From the NCBI GenBank assembly GCA_947449315.1, contig CANFRC010000001.1, positions 237,793-301,792 on the forward strand: a stretch of 64,000 bases of DNA, written 5' to 3'. This document shows positions 22,775 to 55,310 of this stretch, in pieces. Position 1 is the first letter of the stretch, and each line of letters opens with the position of its first letter. The translations under genes and the position numbers were made by a program. Origin of the DNA: Bacteroidota bacterium (GTDB lineage: Bacteria; Bacteroidota; Bacteroidia; 2-12-FULL-35-15). Under the pieces are notes generated by a model. It made no database searches. It was not told where the DNA came from and worked only from the letters and a program-made list of their open reading frames with translations.

Positions 22775-23002
22775 TTAACTATTCTTGTTTGCTTTCATTA
22801 AATAGTAAATATTAATACCAACAATAGCAACATTTGTGAGAATAATGGGAAATGAAAAATGAAGCAATATGCCATATGCAACAAACATCACACAACCGAT
22901 TGTATTAATAACGCGAAGAATTTTTATCTCCTTCATCAAAAAGGATATTAATACGATAAAAGAAGCTAAATAGCCGATGATTTCCGTGGAGGAAAAGTCC
23001 AT
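22775..23002 (-). CDS. YgjV-family small membrane protein
   Basis: 75 aa, EIIGYLASFIVLISFLMK...LRVINTIGC...YG pattern. Confidence 0.7.
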   Translation of the reverse strand: MDFSSTEIIGYLASFIVLISFLMKEIKILRVINTIGCVMFVAYGILLHFSFPIILTNVAIVGINIYYLMKANKNS

Positions 23003-23014
23003 ATTTTTTTTAGA

Positions 23015-24217
23015 TTATTTTCTGAACTTTTCAGTCAGTTCAAAAACATGAATTAAAATCTCTTGTTCGGTTTCGTTAAAAACCAAGCCTCTGCGTTCAA
23101 AAACACGAGCAGCAACTTCAAAAGCATCTTTTAATTTATAGGTTGTGAAACCTGCGGCTCCTCCCCATGAGAAAGAAGGGACAAAGTTTCGTGGAAAACC
23201 TGATCCGAAAATATTTGCATTTACTCCTACAACGGTTCCTGTATTAAACATTGTATTAATACCACATTTACTATGATCTCCCATGATTAAACCACAAAAA
23301 GTAAGGCCCGTATTTACAAATCGTTCCTTTTCGTAATTCCATAATTTTACTTCTGCGTAATTATTTTTCAGATTCGAATTATTGCTATCTGCACCAATAT
23401 TGCACCATTCTCCTAAAACAGAATTACCCAAAAATCCATCGTGACCTTTATTTGAATAGCCAATTATTACAGAGTTATTTACTTCACCACCCACTTTACT
23501 GTGCGGTCCAACAGTAGTTGGACCGTATATTTTCGCTCCTAATTTTAAAGCAGAATGTTCGCACAATGCAAAGGGTCCACGCACAATTGATCCTTCCATG
23601 ATCTCCGAATCTTTGCCAATATAAATGGGTCCTGTAGTCGCATTTAAAATGGCGCATTCCACCTTAGCACCTTCTTCCACAAAAACATTTTCAACACCCA
23701 ACACTTTATTGGTAGAACTCAATGCTATTGATTTACGGCCTTTTGTGATTAGATGAAAATCGGCTTGGATAGCTTCCCCGTTTTTAGAAAAAATATCCCA
23801 GGGATTCTCTATGCGCATTGCCACAGCATGCGATTGAAACTTGGTAAAGCTTTCGATATTCTTAAAATCAAATTCTTTCAAATCTCCTGAATTAGCTGCT
23901 ATCAATACATTCGATGACAACAATGCTTGCTGAGGTTTTAATGATTTTATTTCTTCGATCAGTTTTTCGTTCGGACTAAACGAGCCGTTGATCCATAAAT
24001 TATCGGCATCAATAGCAAAAACAAGAGGAAATTTCTTACTTAAATATTCTTCTGTTTTTGTTGATGTTTTTGATTTTAAATAAAACTCCCATTTTTCGCG
24101 GATAGTTAATATTCCAAACCGTATTTCTGCAACGGGACGTGTAAATGTCAGTGGCAGCATATTAATACGAGTGGTATCGTCAAATAGAATATAGTTCATT
24201 TTTTTATATTTTGACAA
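23015..24217 (-). CDS. GlmU-family (putative sugar nucleotidyltransferase-like) protein with hexapeptide repeats
   Basis: LPLTFTRPVAEIRFGILTIREKW; C-terminal left-handed beta-helix repeats; NKGHDGFLGNS. Confidence 0.82.
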   Translation of the reverse strand: MSKYKKMNYILFDDTTRINMLPLTFTRPVAEIRFGILTIREKWEFYLKSKTSTKTEEYLSKKFPLVFAIDADNLWINGSFSPNEKLIEEIKSLKPQQALLSSNVLIAANSGDLKEFDFKNIESFTKFQSHAVAMRIENPWDIFSKNGEAIQADFHLITKGRKSIALSSTNKVLGVENVFVEEGAKVECAILNATTGPIYIGKDSEIMEGSIVRGPFALCEHSALKLGAKIYGPTTVGPHSKVGGEVNNSVIIGYSNKGHDGFLGNSVLGEWCNIGADSNNSNLKNNYAEVKLWNYEKERFVNTGLTFCGLIMGDHSKCGINTMFNTGTVVGVNANIFGSGFPRNFVPSFSWGGAAGFTTYKLKDAFEVAARVFERRGLVFNETEQEILIHVFELTEKFRK

Positions 24218-37336: not shown

Positions 37337-37549
37337 ATGGGAAAAGGCGATAAAAAAAGCAAAAAAGGTAAAATAGCAATGGGCTCATTTGGAGTTCGCA
37401 GACCTAATAAAAAAGCGAGAGCTGTAAAAGCAAAAAATACAGCACCTGCTAAAAAAGCAGCAGCTCCTAAAAAAGCAGCAGCTCCTAAAAAAGCGGCTGC
37501 TCCAAAAAAAGCAGCAGCTCCTAAAAAAGCAGCAAAAAAAGCTGAATAA
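37337..37549 (+). CDS. thx: 30S ribosomal protein THX with Lys/Ala-rich tail
   Basis: MGKGDKKSKKGKIAMGSFGVRRP is the THX signature; own promoter and terminator. Confidence 0.88.
   Translation: MGKGDKKSKKGKIAMGSFGVRRPNKKARAVKAKNTAPAKKAAAPKKAAAPKKAAAPKKAAAPKKAAKKAE
37448..37537 (+). repeat. five 18-bp tandem units encoding (P/A)KKAAA
   Basis: Consensus CCTAAAAAAGCAGCAGCT read directly, with synonymous variants in units 3 and 4. Confidence 0.95.
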
Positions 37550-49362: not shown

Positions 49363-50814
49363 ATGAAACAGTTTTTATCTGCTAAAACAACTCCTTTTTG
49401 GTTATTCACCCTCGCGGCTATTTTTATTCTTACCCTTTCAAAATTAATTCAAGATGGCGTTTTTTTAGACGGAATGTTATACATCAGTGTATCTAAAAAT
49501 CTGGCAGATGGAATGGGAACTTTCTGGGAGCCGCATTTCAGCAAAACATTAATGACCATTTACCGAGAACAGCCACCACTCTATTCCGGATTGCTAGCTT
49601 TGTTTTACAAAGTATTTGGCACGAGCATGTATGTAGAGCGTTTATTTTGTTTTGTCTGTTATGCATTCACTTTAATTTATGTGCATAAGATCTGGACATC
49701 ACTCTTCCGAAAAGAACCGGAGATAGCAAAAAACAGCTGGTTACCTATTTTATTTTTTGCTACGATACCTGTTGTATTTTGGTCGTATGCCAATCATGTG
49801 GAAGAAACGGTGATGACCTTGTTTGCTACGATGTCTGTTTACTATTTAAGTAAAGCGCTGTTTGAAAAAGAAAAAATAGTGTTCCATATTTTATTGGCAG
49901 GTGTGTGCGTATTCTTATCTAGTTTAACAAAAGGAATACAAGGTATGTTTCCGATAACTGGCGTATTTTTTTACTGGATGGTAAAAAAGGATTTCGCATT
50001 CAAAAAGAATTTCATCTATTCCGCAGTATTGGTTTCAACACCTTTCTTGATCTATGCACTATTGATATGGGTTAATCCACATATTTGGGAAGTGATACGA
50101 TTGTATATGGAAAACCGATTAGGTATTGCCTTAAAAGGCAGTTCTTCCAATACCACCTCTAACCATTTTGAGATATTAATTCGTTTATTCAATGAGTTAA
50201 TCCCTATGTTTTGTTTAATTCTTATCATATATTTTGTGTATAAAAAAACAAAAACAATTAATGCAACAGGGCGTGATCACAATACAGAAGCATGGTGGTT
50301 AGTATTGATCGGATTATCGGGCACCTTACCTTTAATGAGTACATTGGAACAAAGAGGTTTTTATTTAGTAACGGCATTACCCTTATTTGCTTTGGCAGGA
50401 GCTATCTTGGTTGCCAATCCAATTGCCAATCTAATTGCAGGCATCCAAATAGAAAAGAAAGGATTTTTGGTATTCAAATGGATAACAATAGGATTGTTGA
50501 TCGGCTCTGTTTTATTTACTTTATCGTGTGTTGGTAAAACAAAAAGAGACAAAGAAATGCTGAGTGATATTTATGCGATAGGAGAATTTATTCCAAGAGG
50601 AGAAACCATTGGTATCCCAAAAGAGATGTGGGACTACTGGACTTTGCAATGCTATATGGTAAGATACAACTATATCAGTCTGGATGAATCAGAAAACAAA
50701 AACAAGTACTTTGCAATTGAAAAGACATTATCAAAGAAGCTTGTTCCGGCCGGATATGAATTATATCCTCTGAAAACAGAATGGATGGATCTATACATTC
50801 TGAAAAGTCAATAA
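49363..50814 (+). CDS. ArnT/PMT-like GT-C glycosyltransferase
   Basis: DGMLYISVSKNL...WEP...EQPPL first-loop motif; about 12 TM; LTKG. Confidence 0.75.
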   Translation: MKQFLSAKTTPFWLFTLAAIFILTLSKLIQDGVFLDGMLYISVSKNLADGMGTFWEPHFSKTLMTIYREQPPLYSGLLALFYKVFGTSMYVERLFCFVCYAFTLIYVHKIWTSLFRKEPEIAKNSWLPILFFATIPVVFWSYANHVEETVMTLFATMSVYYLSKALFEKEKIVFHILLAGVCVFLSSLTKGIQGMFPITGVFFYWMVKKDFAFKKNFIYSAVLVSTPFLIYALLIWVNPHIWEVIRLYMENRLGIALKGSSSNTTSNHFEILIRLFNELIPMFCLILIIYFVYKKTKTINATGRDHNTEAWWLVLIGLSGTLPLMSTLEQRGFYLVTALPLFALAGAILVANPIANLIAGIQIEKKGFLVFKWITIGLLIGSVLFTLSCVGKTKRDKEMLSDIYAIGEFIPRGETIGIPKEMWDYWTLQCYMVRYNYISLDESENKNKYFAIEKTLSKKLVPAGYELYPLKTEWMDLYILKSQ

Positions 50815-50855
50815 TAAATGCGAAATATTACTATTTTTGCATCAAACGTTTTAAG

Positions 50856-51605
50856 ATGATCAATAATAAAAAAGTAATTGTTGTTTTGCCAGCATATAAT
50901 GCTGCTCTTACATTAGAAAAAACATATAAAGAGATCCCTTTTGATATCGTAGATGAGGTGGTGCTTGTGGATGATGTGAGCAAAGACAATACCGTTGAAG
51001 TTGCTACCCGAATAGGGATCAAACATATCATCAAACATCAGAATAACAGAGGATATGGCGGAAATCAGAAATCATGTTATGATAAAGCATTGGAGTTAGG
51101 TGGCGATATTGTGGTAATGCTACATCCCGATTATCAATACACTCCGCTGTTGATACAATCTATGGCACATATTATCGCAAACAATCTGTATCCGGTTGTA
51201 TTCGGTTCACGTATCTTAGGAAAAGGCGCATTAAAAGGGGGGATGCCCAAGTACAAATATTTCTTCAACCGTTGCTTAACACTTACTCAAAATATATTAT
51301 TGAATCAGAAGTTATCGGAATACCACACTGGCTTCCGAGCTTTCTCTCGTGAAGTATTGGAGACGGTAGATTACGAAGCGAATGATGATGATTTTGTATT
51401 CGACAATGAAATGATCTCTCAGATCTTCATGGTTGGTTTCGAAATTGCAGAGATCACCTGTCCGACAAAATATTTCCCAGAAGCCTCTTCTATTAATTTC
51501 AAACGCAGTTCAAAATATGGAATGGGAGTGCTACGTGTTTCTTTTAGCCACTTTTTCTTTAAAATGGGTTTGAATAAAAACAAGATTTATAGAAGAAAAA
51601 AATAA
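50856..51605 (+). CDS. GT2 polyprenol-phosphate glycosyltransferase (DPM1/ArnC-like); start ATG 50856
   Basis: VVLPAYNA, VDDVSKD, NRGYGG, HPDYQY, GSR, EYHTGFRA; TATTTTTG at 50832. Confidence 0.88.
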   Translation: MINNKKVIVVLPAYNAALTLEKTYKEIPFDIVDEVVLVDDVSKDNTVEVATRIGIKHIIKHQNNRGYGGNQKSCYDKALELGGDIVVMLHPDYQYTPLLIQSMAHIIANNLYPVVFGSRILGKGALKGGMPKYKYFFNRCLTLTQNILLNQKLSEYHTGFRAFSREVLETVDYEANDDDFVFDNEMISQIFMVGFEIAEITCPTKYFPEASSINFKRSSKYGMGVLRVSFSHFFFKMGLNKNKIYRRKK

Positions 51606-51607
51606 AA

Positions 51608-53245
51608 CTATTTTTTCGGCAACCTTAACCAGAAAACAAATCCGTTTTTGCGGTAAAGCTCTTTCAGCTCCGGATATTTTTCGTTGATCTCCCCTCGTGT
51701 GGTAATTTTACTTACAAAATAAGCCGGCTTATCAATGTCGCCTTTCAACAACCAGTCGGAATTGTAACTATTACTGTTTGATTGCAGCTGTTTATCTGAA
51801 TAAAAGAAATGCGCGTAGCTTTTAAAACCATAGGTTTCCACATAACAATCTTTGCTTTGTAACGACTTATAGAACTCAATGGCTGCAGCTTGAGAATATT
51901 GCTCGATGCGGGGCGCGATCACTACAGATGATAAATTGACCGTTAATAAAGAGATTATAAAAATACCTACAATACCCCATTTTGTTTTTCCTCTGTTGAT
52001 CAAAACTAGCATCACTCCTACTCCAACAATCAGCAAAGCGCCTATCAGCCATTCGAAGCCCGTCCATTGAACAGTGGCTTTTAAATTTTCCAGTCCAAAT
52101 TTATCTTTAACGATATTGGCATCAATTATTTTTTGTTTGTATTTATCAATAAAAGGAAGCGCAGAAATAGTGAGTCCGATGATGCTAGCAATGCTCATCA
52201 ATAAAATGCTGGTTACTTTTTTCCATCGGAGTTCCCCGTTGATTAGTTTGTAGATACCATAAGCCCCCATAAAACTTAAAGGGAAATAACACAAAGACGA
52301 ATAATGAACTATTTTAGTTTTCACGATGCTGAACAAGATCAACACCACCCAGAACAAGATCATCATCCAACGTTTGAAATGTTTTTGATAGGGTGTATCA
52401 GAGGAGCTGCTTTTAAATCCTCTTAAAGCAAAAACAGACATTGGAAAACAACCTATTAAAAGTACCAGCCAATGGTAATAGAAAGGACCACCATGACCTG
52501 CATCTTGCGTGTTGAACAACCGAACCTGGTATAAAAAAAACTCCTGAATGATCTCATTATGACCGGTCAGAAACAGCATCAGGAACCACAAACCGCCAAC
52601 GGCAGCTACTGCAAAAGCATATAAAAGCATGTGCTTAACAGGCATAACTTGTTTAAAACGTGTGAGTATCCAATATACCCCAAAGCACAAGCCGAATACA
52701 AGCACTGCAACAGGTCCTTTTGTCAAAACTCCTAAACCAATGAATAAAGCAGAAAGTAAAAGAAGTTGCAGACTTCTATTGTTACTATATAAAATAAAAT
52801 AATAGATGCCACTGAAAATAAAAAGATTGAACCAGGGATCGATGATTCCGGATTTAAAATAAAAGTGTGGCAGAAAAGAGGCGGCAAAGGCCAACATCCA
52901 TACTAATCCAAAGCGTTCATCATACAGCTTTCTACCGATGTTAAAAACAAGGACGAGGGTGATGATACCACAAACAGCATTAGGCAAACGGGCAGCAAAT
53001 TCATTTATTCCGAATGTCGCCATAGATAAAGCTTGCATCCAGATAAAGATAGGAGGCTTTTCCCAGAAGGGTTGAAAATTGATCTTTACAGAAAAATAAT
53101 CGTGAGTGACCAACATTTCACGAGCACATTCAGCAAAGTTGATTTCATCCCAATCAAATAAATGGACCGCTCCAAGGAAAGGAACAAAGAGTATTATTGC
53201 GCCTAATACGATTAAAATAGAATATCGAAATGCGCTAGTTTTCAT
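51608..53245 (-). CDS. ArnT-like (GT39/GT83) glycosyltransferase
   Basis: LFDWDEINFAECAREM, FWEKPP, EFAARLP, LTKGP. Confidence 0.85.
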   Translation of the reverse strand: MKTSAFRYSILIVLGAIILFVPFLGAVHLFDWDEINFAECAREMLVTHDYFSVKINFQPFWEKPPIFIWMQALSMATFGINEFAARLPNAVCGIITLVLVFNIGRKLYDERFGLVWMLAFAASFLPHFYFKSGIIDPWFNLFIFSGIYYFILYSNNRSLQLLLLSALFIGLGVLTKGPVAVLVFGLCFGVYWILTRFKQVMPVKHMLLYAFAVAAVGGLWFLMLFLTGHNEIIQEFFLYQVRLFNTQDAGHGGPFYYHWLVLLIGCFPMSVFALRGFKSSSSDTPYQKHFKRWMMILFWVVLILFSIVKTKIVHYSSLCYFPLSFMGAYGIYKLINGELRWKKVTSILLMSIASIIGLTISALPFIDKYKQKIIDANIVKDKFGLENLKATVQWTGFEWLIGALLIVGVGVMLVLINRGKTKWGIVGIFIISLLTVNLSSVVIAPRIEQYSQAAAIEFYKSLQSKDCYVETYGFKSYAHFFYSDKQLQSNSNSYNSDWLLKGDIDKPAYFVSKITTRGEINEKYPELKELYRKNGFVFWLRLPKK

Positions 53246-53886
53246 TCGTTAGCAGGTATTAAAGATCTTTCCAGCCAGGGATTTTTAGCGGAACTTATCC
53301 ATTTGAATACAAGTATGGAAACCACCACTCCAATGAGCGAACCGGCATAAACATCTTGTAAGAAGTGTTGCGATAAATAGATGCGCGAATACCCCACTAA
53401 AAAAGCAATGGCAAATAAAATAAATTTATAGCGTTTGTCATCAATGAGCAATGCCAAAGAAAAATACAAAGAGAACGCACAAGTAGCGTGTCCGGAAGGA
53501 AAGCTGTTGTATAAATAATTATCGGTACCTGGAACAAAATACAAATCATGAACACCTTCAAAGAATTTTTTTGGGCGCACCACATCCGAAAAAAATGTGT
53601 GTTTAAGTGTTTGAGTGATGGCCGCAGAAAAAATATTTGCAAGACCGACGATGATTGCATACCTGTATTTGACTACAAGAAGAAGAATGATCGTTAATGC
53701 AGCAGCAACACCATCTCCTAAAAAAGTGATATACGTGAACAACACATTAAAAAAGGAATTGTGATAGGAATTGAATTCCAGGTGTGTATCAGCTTTGCTA
53801 TTTGCAATGATCAATAGTGCACCCAGAAGGAGAAAGATAAGATAAGGAAAAATAAATGAAAGATTGGCTCTTAAGATGGCTTTCAC
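53242..53886 (-). CDS. PAP2 family membrane phosphatase
   Basis: K..RP, SFPSGH, SRIYLSQHF.QD; 4-nt overlap with the ArnT-like gene. Confidence 0.9.
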   Translation of the reverse strand: MKAILRANLSFIFPYLIFLLLGALLIIANSKADTHLEFNSYHNSFFNVLFTYITFLGDGVAAALTIILLLVVKYRYAIIVGLANIFSAAITQTLKHTFFSDVVRPKKFFEGVHDLYFVPGTDNYLYNSFPSGHATCAFSLYFSLALLIDDKRYKFILFAIAFLVGYSRIYLSQHFLQDVYAGSLIGVVVSILVFKWISSAKNPWLERSLIPANE

Positions 53887-53916: not shown

Positions 53917-55059
53917 TTAGTTAGAACCTAAAACACCTAATAATTTATTTACTTGACTATCCCAAAGTAATTTTGAAGTTTCCATATCAGAAGCTTCATC
54001 TGCGAAATCAATAATAATAAGTGAAGTGTCGCCAGTTAATTCATCCTTTTCGATACGGAATTCAAAATAGGTTCCTTCCGGTTTGTCCATCCAGCGAAGA
54101 CGGATAAATTTATCTTCTTTAAATCCAAGTAATTTTGCTTTTTGCTCACTTCCATCCCAGAAAAAAGTAAACATACCGTCACGGATATTCACATCGTCTG
54201 CGAACCATTCGGATAAACCACTTGGAGAGGTAATAAATTCATACAAGATACCTGCAGAAGTACGAATCACATACTCCAGTTCAAATTTTCCTTTCGGCTC
54301 TTTTTTAGGAATAATAGCACCTTTTTTTCCGCTATTCTCAGATGGAGCAACGGTAAGAGAGGTCATAGGATTCACAAAGGTTTTTAAGATCTTAGGAACT
54401 TTAGGGCCATTTTTCTTCTTTTTAGTACTTGCTATTAATTGTTCGATCAATTCATCATGCACAATTTCCGGCTCATCATCATCATCTCCATCCTTCTTCT
54501 TTGGCTTTCTTCCTCCTTTTGATCTGCTAGGCTTTATTTTTATAGGCTTGATTTGTTCTTTTTCTTCACTTTTTTTGGCTACTACCTTGATCACAACTTT
54601 CTCTTCTTTAGCTAATTTCACTGATTTTTCCGGTGCAACTACCTTTTTTGCACCCTTTGCAGGCTTCACAACTTTCAATTCAAGCTTCCCGCCTACTGGA
54701 CGGGCAGGTTTTACAGGCAATTTTACCACTTTAACCGGCTTAACAACCTTTTTAGCAATCGCTTTAACTGGTTTCTGTACTTTCCTGCCTGCAGGACGGG
54801 CAGATTTAGGGGTCACTTTTTTAGCAATCGCTTTCTTCACCACCTTTTTAACAGGTTTAACAGTCTTTTTAGGCACTATTTTCTTCGCAACCTTCTTCGC
54901 AACTTGTTTCTTTGCAGCGGGTTTAGACGATTTAACGACCTTTTTTACAGATATTTTTTTTGCTGCCTTAGCTAGCTTCGCTTTTTGGGCTACAGACTTT
55001 GCTTTAGCAGGTTTAGATGACTTTTTCACTGGTTGGGATTTACTTTGCTTTTTGCTCAT
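53917..55059 (-). CDS. Lys/Ala/Val/Pro-rich (H1-like) region fused to a C-terminal START-like (SRPBCC) domain
   Basis: C-terminal ~123 aa KFELEY...TSPSGLSEWFADDVN...LWDSQV; N-terminal ~255 aa of KKVAKK/KPVKK-type repeats. Confidence 0.82.
   Translation of the reverse strand: MSKKQSKSQPVKKSSKPAKAKSVAQKAKLAKAAKKISVKKVVKSSKPAAKKQVAKKVAKKIVPKKTVKPVKKVVKKAIAKKVTPKSARPAGRKVQKPVKAIAKKVVKPVKVVKLPVKPARPVGGKLELKVVKPAKGAKKVVAPEKSVKLAKEEKVVIKVVAKKSEEKEQIKPIKIKPSRSKGGRKPKKKDGDDDDEPEIVHDELIEQLIASTKKKKNGPKVPKILKTFVNPMTSLTVAPSENSGKKGAIIPKKEPKGKFELEYVIRTSAGILYEFITSPSGLSEWFADDVNIRDGMFTFFWDGSEQKAKLLGFKEDKFIRLRWMDKPEGTYFEFRIEKDELTGDTSLIIIDFADEASDMETSKLLWDSQVNKLLGVLGSN
54688..54708 (-). repeat. 21-nt GC-rich palindromic element, copy 1 (encodes PARPVGG)
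   Basis: CCTGCCCGTCCAGTAGGCGGG; 16/21 GC; terminal 6-bp stem. Confidence 0.7.
54784..54804 (-). repeat. 21-nt GC-rich palindromic element, copy 2 (encodes SARPAGR)
   Basis: TCTGCCCGTCCTGCAGGCAGG; 15/21 GC; 17/21 identical to copy 1. Confidence 0.7.
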
Positions 55060-55152
55060 TTTAATTGCCTTTTAAAACAAAACTCACGCAATATATAAAA
55101 AAATATTAACCTTCCTATAGATATGTTTTGTTAAAAAAACTAAAAAGGACTT

Positions 55153-55233: not shown

Positions 55234-55307
55234 GGCGAGGTAGCTCAGATGGTTAGAGCGCAGGATTCATAACCCTGAGGTCTCGGGTTCAACTCCCGAT
55301 CTCGCTA
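55234..55307 (+). tRNA. tRNA-Met(CAT), elongator type; CCA not encoded
   Basis: Cloverleaf: acceptor GGCGAGG/TCTCGCT, D-arm AGCTCAG..GG..AGAGC, anticodon CAT 55268-70, GGTTCAA T-loop, A73; lacks initiator hallmarks (C1:A72 mismatch, three G-C anticodon pairs). Confidence 0.93.
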
Positions 55308-55310
55308 CAC

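Follow-up and report, generated by a model that had tools for sequence, protein, structure and literature searches.

Architecture of the START_2 fusion protein

The stretch of DNA analyzed here, 64,000 nucleotides (nt) in length and referred to as the window, derives from an uncultured Bacteroidota bacterium of the class Bacteroidia (contig CANFRC010000001.1, positions 237,793 to 301,792 of the forward strand) and carries a gene for a 380-residue protein in which a polycationic tail and a linker precede an acidic START_2 domain (Table 1). The gene reads on the minus strand, a point corrected here, with genes for a PAP2-type lipid-phosphate phosphatase and an ArnT-like glycosyltransferase downstream and a divergent tRNA-Met gene on the other side. 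Residues 1-255 were found to be 29% lysine, 14% valine, 10% alanine and 9% proline with a net charge of +61; within this part, residues 181-255 are of mixed composition and include the acidic patch DGDDDDEPE. No hydrophobic stretch was detected in the protein by Kyte-Doolittle analysis (maximum 19-residue mean of only 0.77), and thus neither a signal peptide nor a transmembrane helix is predicted. An initial annotation of this locus had described a K/A/V/P-dominated part of ~255 residues, an acidic patch, a START-like domain and the lack of a signal peptide, all of which were seen by composition, Pfam and hydropathy analyses. The protein matched no NCBIfam family model at E-values up to 1, and near-identical full-length proteins are public (P0002 at 99% identity and P0003 at 92%).

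An antisense open reading frame (ORF) of 330 residues (54083..55075, plus strand) could be miscalled as a gene at this locus. Its translation is rich in F, L, G and T, from which it was judged to be a mirror artefact of the tail lysine codons.

Table 1. Coordinates of the START_2 locus and of tailed proteins in the same genome. Plain ranges are positions in the window; entries with a C-number are loci of the window's genome.
Feature	Position	Strand	Details
START_2 fusion gene	53917..55059 (including stop codon)	minus	ATG start, 380 aa; from the ORF list and translation
Polycationic disordered N-terminal tail	54520..55059	minus	aa 1-180
First motif copy, ARPAGRK	54781..54801	minus	aa 87-93; DNA match to DksA-like tail, 31 nt, 93.5%
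Second motif copy, ARPVGGK	54685..54705	minus	aa 119-125; DNA match to TopA, 30 nt, 96.7%, and to DksA-like tail, 27 nt, 96.3%
Conserved linker module	54310..54519	minus	aa 181-250
START_2 (PF19569) helix-grip domain	53926..54294	minus	aa 256-378
PAP2 lipid-phosphate phosphatase gene	53242..53886	minus	30 nt downstream of START_2; Pfam PAP2, E 2e-23
ArnT-like GT39/PMT_2 glycosyltransferase gene	51608..53245	minus	4-nt overlap with the PAP2 stop codon; Pfam PMT_2, E 4e-19
tRNA-Met(CAT), elongator type	55234..55308	plus	ARAGORN; divergent from START_2, 174-nt spacer
Thx-like protein	37337-37549	plus	70 aa
Tailed DksA/TraR-type protein	C4 ~77934	plus
DksA-like motif DNA	C4:78111-78137 and C4:78273-78303
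Tailed TopA	C12 ~40557	plus
TopA motif DNA	C12:42975-43004
Tailed adenylate kinase	C6 ~55164	plus
Tailed RsfS	C15 ~22876-23169	minus
Tailed bL21	C14 ~27399	plus
Small stand-alone lysine-rich proteins	C8, C11

The C-terminal domain was assigned to START_2 by Pfam with an E-value of 1e-41 (142.2 bits compared to a cut-off of 23.6) over profile positions 4-125 of 126, and its nearest solved sequence relative is an uncharacterized protein of 136 residues (PDB 2LIO_A, E 6e-24 over the whole domain). The full-length AlphaFold 2 (AF2) model was poor (mean predicted local distance difference test score, pLDDT, of 50, domain included); a second model of residues 176-380, based on a more diverse alignment, gave residues 256-380 a pLDDT of ~95 and placed them in a beta-sheet with a long C-terminal helix. 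When compared to the PDB by Foldseek, this model matched best to bacterial and human SRPBCC proteins of the Aha1 type (target TM-score ~0.7, identity 11-21%). Thus, the AF2 model, the Foldseek matches and 2LIO_A all show the helix-grip (START/SRPBCC) fold. The Aha1/AHSA1 proteins (PDB 2M89 and 8ES5, and the C-terminal domain of human Aha1) are the nearest folds in the PDB, but they share little sequence with the domain and Pfam assigns START_2, not AHSA1; START_2 was indeed the sole Pfam family found at E-values up to 1, with no match to a RatA/Coq10-type family. The domain has a net charge of -9, and values of -7 to -15 were calculated for 70 of 70 orthologues. A domain that is always this acidic is not expected to bind nucleic acid by itself. 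A literature search found no account of START_2 function or of its fusion to a tail. A paper on lipocone proteins that was retrieved with START-domain and PAP2 terms was set aside as irrelevant to the START_2 family.

The tail resembles histone H1 in composition

Residues 1-180 consist of 33% lysine, 17% valine, 13% alanine and 9% proline and carry a net charge of +56. The tail starts with MSKK, and nearly all long forms of the protein begin with MAKK or MSKK. Residues 1-175 had pLDDT values below 50 and were devoid of secondary structure in the full-length AF2 model, as predicted for a disordered region. When the tail alone was searched against Pfam at E-values up to 10, no family was matched, including the linker-histone, Hc1 and HC2 families, and Hc1/Hc2 were likewise unmatched in NCBIfam at E-values up to 1. 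A tandem-repeat origin of the tail was also considered and rejected, as Tandem Repeats Finder (TRF) reported just one 12-nt unit in 1.9 copies; the sequence is of low complexity and non-periodic, and regular tandem repeats of the KPAA type, as in AlgP, were not found by this program. Based on the lack of a family match and of a tandem repeat, the "histone H1-like" label of the initial annotation holds for composition, but not for homology to H1, Hc1 or Hc2. Residues 1-180 do form a K/A/P-rich, disordered and basic region as in H1 tails and in chlamydial Hc1/Hc2. They differ in that a winged-helix globular domain was detected neither by Pfam at E-values up to 10 nor as a folded element of residues 1-175 in the AF2 model, and in a valine content that, in our judgement, exceeds what would be expected for H1 tails. 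By inspection, the AT-hook core RGRP is not present; the nearest strings are GGRKPK (residues 182-187) and ARPxG[GR]K (residues 87-93 and 119-125).

A conserved linker found only in long START_2 proteins

The acidic patch noted in the initial annotation is present, but it proved to be more than a short patch, as the region in which it lies is a linker with 12 residues invariant among 47 homologues (E196, P197, D202, L204, I209, K220, P222, T227, F228, N230, P231 and L235). The linker is made up of GGRKPK, the patch DGDDDDEPE (190-198), a helix HDELIEQLI (201-209), a basic stretch and PKILKTFVNPM (222-232). The helix was modeled at residues 203-212 in the full-length AF2 model and at 203-210 in the model of residues 176-380; in the latter, the linker had pLDDT values of 50-57, and neither linker nor tail was confidently docked on the START_2 domain. 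By phmmer search of 1.84 billion representative sequences, six matches to the linker were detected, of which five have the length of long START_2 forms (244-390 aa) and one is a fragment of 93 aa, with no occurrence on another domain. As far as these searches reach, the linker of ~70 residues is thus confined to long START_2 proteins.

Translation of the lysine-rich tail is very probable

An open frame of 120-377 codons with 20-40% lysine was found to precede the domain in 36 of 36 long orthologues from at least 13 GTDB families. A frame of ~250 codons at 36% GC would be expected to stay open by chance with a probability of ~1e-8 by our own estimate. Ratios of nonsynonymous to synonymous substitution rates (dN/dS), calculated by the Nei-Gojobori method, were in the range of 0.11-0.31 (tail) and 0.02-0.08 (START_2 domain). 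These values are rough, as most pairs had a saturated dS and alignments of low-complexity sequence are not reliable; the pair with the least saturation (L007/L008, dS ~1) gave 0.18 for the tail and 0.02 for the domain. The public protein of 99% identity differs by an in-frame deletion of one residue in the acidic patch. Taken together, the open frame, the purifying selection and the frame-preserving deletion make it very probable that the tail is part of the protein.

It is hardly credible, in our estimate, that only the C-terminal domain is made from an internal start, such that the lysine-rich frame is an untranslated leader or an annotation artefact. Some public annotations do list products of 117-147 aa in genomes with a long form. 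Strong Shine-Dalgarno signals are lacking in Bacteroidia, which makes internal initiation compatible with the sequence, and an exact Bacteroidia promoter box (TAnnTTTG) was not found 5' of the first ATG. The same box was not found internally either, and no sigma-70-type promoter site was detected upstream of or inside the gene. The methionine of NPMTSL, proposed earlier as an internal start, is isoleucine or histidine in relatives, and no methionine is invariant among the 47 homologues. The linker is conserved at the protein level upstream of any candidate start, and it is difficult to reconcile a domain-only product with a tail frame that is held open in all 36 long forms and is under purifying selection. 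The public calls of 117-121 aa (starting "MEYVIR...") begin within the first beta-strand of the domain and lose invariant residues together with the whole tail; since they cut off invariant residues of the domain, they are best explained as miscalls. Truncated annotation of this kind looks systematic across the family. Examples are the NCBI entries P0134, P0136 and P0140, named "SRPBCC domain-containing protein" (e.g., on a contig of G028).

START_2 proteins with tails occur in at least 13 families

START_2 genes were detected in 344 of 401 sampled Bacteroidia genomes, mostly as a single copy, with one copy in the genome of the window. Most of the frames were 125-190 aa in length, and thus the stand-alone form of ~125 aa mentioned in the initial annotation is indeed the usual one and is found in most families. 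Profile searches for START_2, in keeping with the survey of N-terminal extensions proposed in that annotation, revealed that 13 or more GTDB families have lysine-rich tails, which are 45-377 aa in length; the short ones, of ~45-55 aa, make tail length continuous. Long frames were present in families f1, f4, f5, f8, f18, f22, f27, f28, f37, f42, f43, f45 and part of f23 (f-numbers denote the GTDB families of the sampled Bacteroidia, f1 being that of the window's genome). In protein databases, more than 700 clusters (90% identity) of 209-665 aa matched the full-length query, and all 120 among the matches listed carry PF19569.

When a maximum-likelihood tree was built from the domain, a single clade (support 100/99) united 27 long forms of nine families, and the long forms of f28, f27, f4 and a subset of f23 fell outside of it. 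Parsimony required five changes in tail presence, of which at least two are forced by well-supported branches. The tree thus describes a single large gain of the tail, with additional gains or losses elsewhere. A linker with acidic patch and helix is common to f1, f28 and, less strongly, f27, which suggests that part of this pattern may reflect loss instead of independent gain.

Similar tails on other proteins share a motif

The window's genome (35.8% GC) has 8571 open frames of 60 aa or more, 10 of which were flagged by a composition filter. Similar tails were found on a DksA/TraR-type zinc-finger protein (N-terminal, ~190 aa, followed by an acidic patch), adenylate kinase (Adk; C-terminal, ~140 aa), RsfS (N-terminal, ~95 aa) and ribosomal protein bL21 (C-terminal), the domain identities of which were confirmed with Pfam. 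The Thx-like protein of the window has an (AAAPKK)n tail after an N-terminal Thx match that is below the Pfam cut-off (E 4e-6). Also flagged were TopA, with a tail at its C-terminal end, IF-2 and two small stand-alone lysine-rich proteins. Thus, the tails of this genome are mostly on proteins of DNA, RNA polymerase and the ribosome (TopA, DksA-like, RsfS, bL21 and Thx), with adenylate kinase in addition.

The motif K[PS]ARPxGGK was found in five of these tails, twice each in START_2 and the DksA-like protein and once each in Adk, TopA and a protein of 105 aa, and elsewhere in the genome in just one further open frame of 60 aa or more. The motif codons of START_2, DksA-like and TopA are 93-97% identical over 27-31 nt. 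ARPxGGK was considered as a general feature of START_2 tails and rejected, as it was found in only 2 of 43 long loci and 19 of 120 long homologues. A motif that is shared within the genome but rare elsewhere suggests, at the sequence level, either homogenization or gene conversion among the tails or a trans-acting partner common to them.

A set of 64 genomes was scanned for extended RsfS and Adk frames, the composition of the extensions being known for the window's genome only. Extended RsfS frames were detected in f1, f45 and f37 and extended Adk frames in f1, f5, f45 and part of f37. START_2 thus has the widest tail distribution among these three proteins (at least 13 families vs. four for Adk and three for RsfS).

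START_2 genes adjoin PAP2 and tRNA-Met genes

No terminator-like site was found between the START_2 and PAP2 genes of the window. The PAP2 protein gave weak NCBIfam matches, far below cut-off, to undecaprenyl-diphosphatases, PgpB and LpxE, and the GT39 protein matched the ArnT model below its cut-off (E 3.5e-27). A pattern search for canonical PAP2 motifs found none, the spacing being non-canonical; PAP2 neighbors were instead called with a hidden Markov model built from PAP2 hits. PAP2 was found next to START_2 in at least 14 families and in several arrangements, with a GT39 gene after PAP2 in many loci. PAP2 is downstream and co-directional in f1, f4, f5, f8, f18, f22, f37, f42, f43, f49 and part of f28, as well as in two metagenome lineages outside of the family numbering (P0233 of the Flavobacteriales, with a 1-nt overlap, and P0170). 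In f15 it precedes START_2 on the same strand, in f38 and f31 it is divergent (the orientation in f38 being derived from locus coordinates), and in one locus of f8 it is on the opposite strand. Within the flanks fetched (~0.3-3 kb), no PAP2 gene was found in f44, f32, f12, f21 and others, nor beside tailed START_2 genes of f45, f27, f28 and, in part, f23. In Flavobacteriales, START_2 neighbors include genes for a CDP-alcohol phosphatidyltransferase and a fatty-acid desaturase. That START_2 and PAP2 stay close to each other although their arrangement varies speaks for a functional link beyond inherited synteny.

Window positions 49363-53886 encode PAP2, two ArnT-like PMT_2 proteins and an ArnC-like GT2, a set typical of lipid A/undecaprenyl-type modification; beside this set are genes for LptF/G, an epimerase and two GT4 proteins, and on the other flank are tRNA-Met, ribBA and TamB. 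By gene content, START_2 thus lies in a region of the lipopolysaccharide (LPS) type. Of the three CAT tRNAs in the genome, one has initiator hallmarks and one is Ile2-like, and the tRNA adjoining START_2 would by elimination be the only elongator tRNA-Met. Proximity to tRNA-Met, mentioned in the initial annotation, was borne out, as a tRNA-Met gene was located within 1.5 kb in 35 of 60 START_2 loci; of 20 additional families, 10 have one within ~3 kb. START_2 is divergent beside tRNA-Met(CAT) across much of the Bacteroidia.

Discussion

The fusion described here has a lysine-rich low-complexity region that is in frame with a conserved globular domain and is maintained by selection, as in the histone-like-tail fusions of other bacteria. 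Its closest relatives are the stand-alone START_2 proteins (e.g., PDB 2LIO), with which it shares clear domain membership, an acidic domain and tRNA-Met and PAP2 neighbors, and from which it differs by an N-terminal extension of 255 residues that has no counterpart in most families. AlgP of Pseudomonas is built of regular KPAA-type repeats, and PhaF and PhaM link polyhydroxyalkanoate (PHA) granules to the nucleoid. Similar to these proteins, the fusion has an H1-like lysine-rich region that may link a cellular structure to a polyanion; it differs from AlgP in having abundant valine and no tandem repeat.

The initial annotation had likened the tail to basic repeats that act on DNA elsewhere, and the tail is indeed of a compositional type that binds DNA or polyphosphate in other bacteria, as reported for DdbA (PMC3643593), Streptomyces TopA (PMC5714199) and AlgP of Pseudomonas aeruginosa, which acts on and organizes polyphosphate granules (PMC9239181). 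DdbA of Streptomyces coelicolor joins a histone H1-like lysine-rich region to a DksA-like domain and binds DNA (PMC3643593). It is similar to the fusion in placing a lysine-rich region on a small globular domain of other function, and the window's genome has a tailed DksA/TraR-type protein of its own; the two differ in that the partner domain here is START/Aha1-like, the phylum is another, no sequence relationship exists and DNA binding, demonstrated for DdbA, is predicted for START_2. The lysine-rich tails of Streptomyces TopA (PMC5714199) and HupB (PMC5676037) bind DNA and, together with that of HupS, exemplify low-complexity lysine-rich extensions that occur clade-wide on housekeeping proteins. 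TopA of the window's genome likewise ends in such a tail, with the motif ARPAGGK. The actinobacterial proteins differ in being DNA enzymes or nucleoid proteins, with an obvious gain from tethering to DNA. The design principle of a histone-like tail on a functional domain is thus already known from DdbA and actinobacterial TopA, and its use with START_2 is newly described.

We consider the tail most likely to be a generic electrostatic tether by which START_2 is brought to nucleic acid or to some other polyanion, and we assign this reading a probability of about 0.55. The full-length protein would be cytoplasmic and composed of three modules. Because the START_2 gene is found repeatedly beside PAP2, and often with an ArnT-like GT39 gene, the core job of the domain most likely concerns an envelope lipid, with the pocket binding a hydrophobic ligand of that metabolism; this family role does not depend on the tail and is tied to envelope-lipid enzymes by association. 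The tail would be a lineage-specific add-on of a generic kind and non-specific in action, holding the acidic domain on polyanions (chiefly nucleic acid of the nucleoid and ribosomes, possibly polyphosphate or anionic membrane) and thereby raising its local concentration. Binding to, or coating of, nucleic acid by the full-length protein would be a by-product. Several points weigh against this reading. The tail on adenylate kinase indicates that such tails are not restricted to nucleic-acid machinery, so that the common target could be polyphosphate or membrane, and a linker that was found with START_2 only could indicate that the interaction is more specific than simple tethering. The roughness of the dN/dS values noted above also counts here, and the neighborhood of START_2 could be partly inherited synteny. 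The active sites of characterized PAP2 and ArnT relatives face the periplasm; a direct biochemical link of these membrane enzymes to START_2, which has no export signal, is therefore uncertain.

The main alternative to a tether is a membrane or lipid-handling role, in which the tail would lie on the anionic inner leaflet or on lipid A or undecaprenyl-phosphate intermediates and the pocket would extract or present a lipid for the PAP2/ArnT-like pathway. START/SRPBCC folds commonly bind lipids, and the adjacency of START_2 and PAP2 genes, with GT39 in some cases, across 14 or more families and several arrangements, some of them translationally coupled, is in favor of this role, as are the LPS-type context in the window and the lipid enzymes encoded beside START_2 in Flavobacteriales. 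We nonetheless hold it to be unlikely: the same tails and motif are on TopA and the DksA-like protein, which act on nucleic acid, tails are also on RsfS and ribosomal proteins, and tails of 180-377 aa would, in our judgement, far exceed the need of a membrane anchor. The lack of a signal peptide on START_2 does not fit with relatives of PAP2 and ArnT that face the periplasm, and no PAP2 neighbor was found for tailed START_2 in f45, f27, f28 and some of f23. The ribosome is another conceivable site of action, with the tail binding rRNA. The SRPBCC protein RatA reportedly acts on ribosomes, tails occur in this genome on RsfS, bL21, the Thx-like protein and IF-2, and START_2 is linked class-wide to the single elongator tRNA-Met gene. 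A START_2 domain that acts on ribosomes is very doubtful in view of its strongly acidic character, its Aha1-like structural neighbors and the lack of a RatA/Coq10-type match in Pfam, and the tRNA adjacency may be mere synteny.

The initial annotation had favored a dedicated nucleoid-condensing or phase-separating chromatin factor, in which a ligand in the START pocket would switch DNA binding. A disordered tail of net charge +56, of a compositional type that binds DNA in DdbA (PMC3643593), TopA (PMC5714199) and HupB (PMC5676037), is compatible with such a factor, the acidic domain (-9) and acidic patch beside the cationic tail could form an intramolecular electrostatic switch, and START_2 acquired tails more than once. 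Yet no homology of the tail to H1, Hc1 or Hc2 was detected, many unrelated housekeeping proteins of the genome are also tailed, five tails have a motif in common and small lysine-rich proteins that stand alone are already present in the genome. START_2 is tail-less in most Bacteroidia, which indicates that the core function of the family is not chromatin, and its conserved partner is a lipid phosphatase, which points to envelope-lipid biology. No confident docking of linker or tail on the domain was modeled by AF2. Thus, the ligand-responsive, chromatin-condensing reading is not supported; it is possible in principle, has nothing specific in its favor and appears improbable. The presence of the same kind of tail on TopA, DksA-like, RsfS, bL21, Thx and adenylate kinase is better explained by a generic tether than by a special chromatin factor. 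A further scheme, which we regard as very improbable, is a ligand-gated switch: START_2 would sense an envelope-lipid intermediate (e.g., a polyprenyl phosphate or lipid A precursor), the acidic domain and patch would mask the tail until the ligand binds, envelope-lipid status would be coupled to occupancy of the nucleoid or ribosomes, and the motif-sharing tails (TopA, DksA-like, RsfS, Adk and ribosomal proteins) would belong to one co-evolving polyanion-bound compartment.

START_2, a family with a solved structure, is near-universal in the Bacteroidia, a class whose phylum includes the dominant gut Bacteroides. Its pairing with PAP2 and an ArnT-like transferase and its polycationic tailing, the widest of the three proteins surveyed, provide new handles on the family. 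At a practical level, annotation pipelines often truncate the long START_2 genes. Of wider interest are the link between START_2 and PAP2 and the motif-sharing tails on housekeeping proteins. Entire sets of housekeeping proteins are tailed in some families of Bacteroidia, with motifs in common among the tails of one genome. This parallels Actinobacteria and suggests that a general means of bringing proteins to the nucleoid, ribosomes or polyphosphate has evolved repeatedly.

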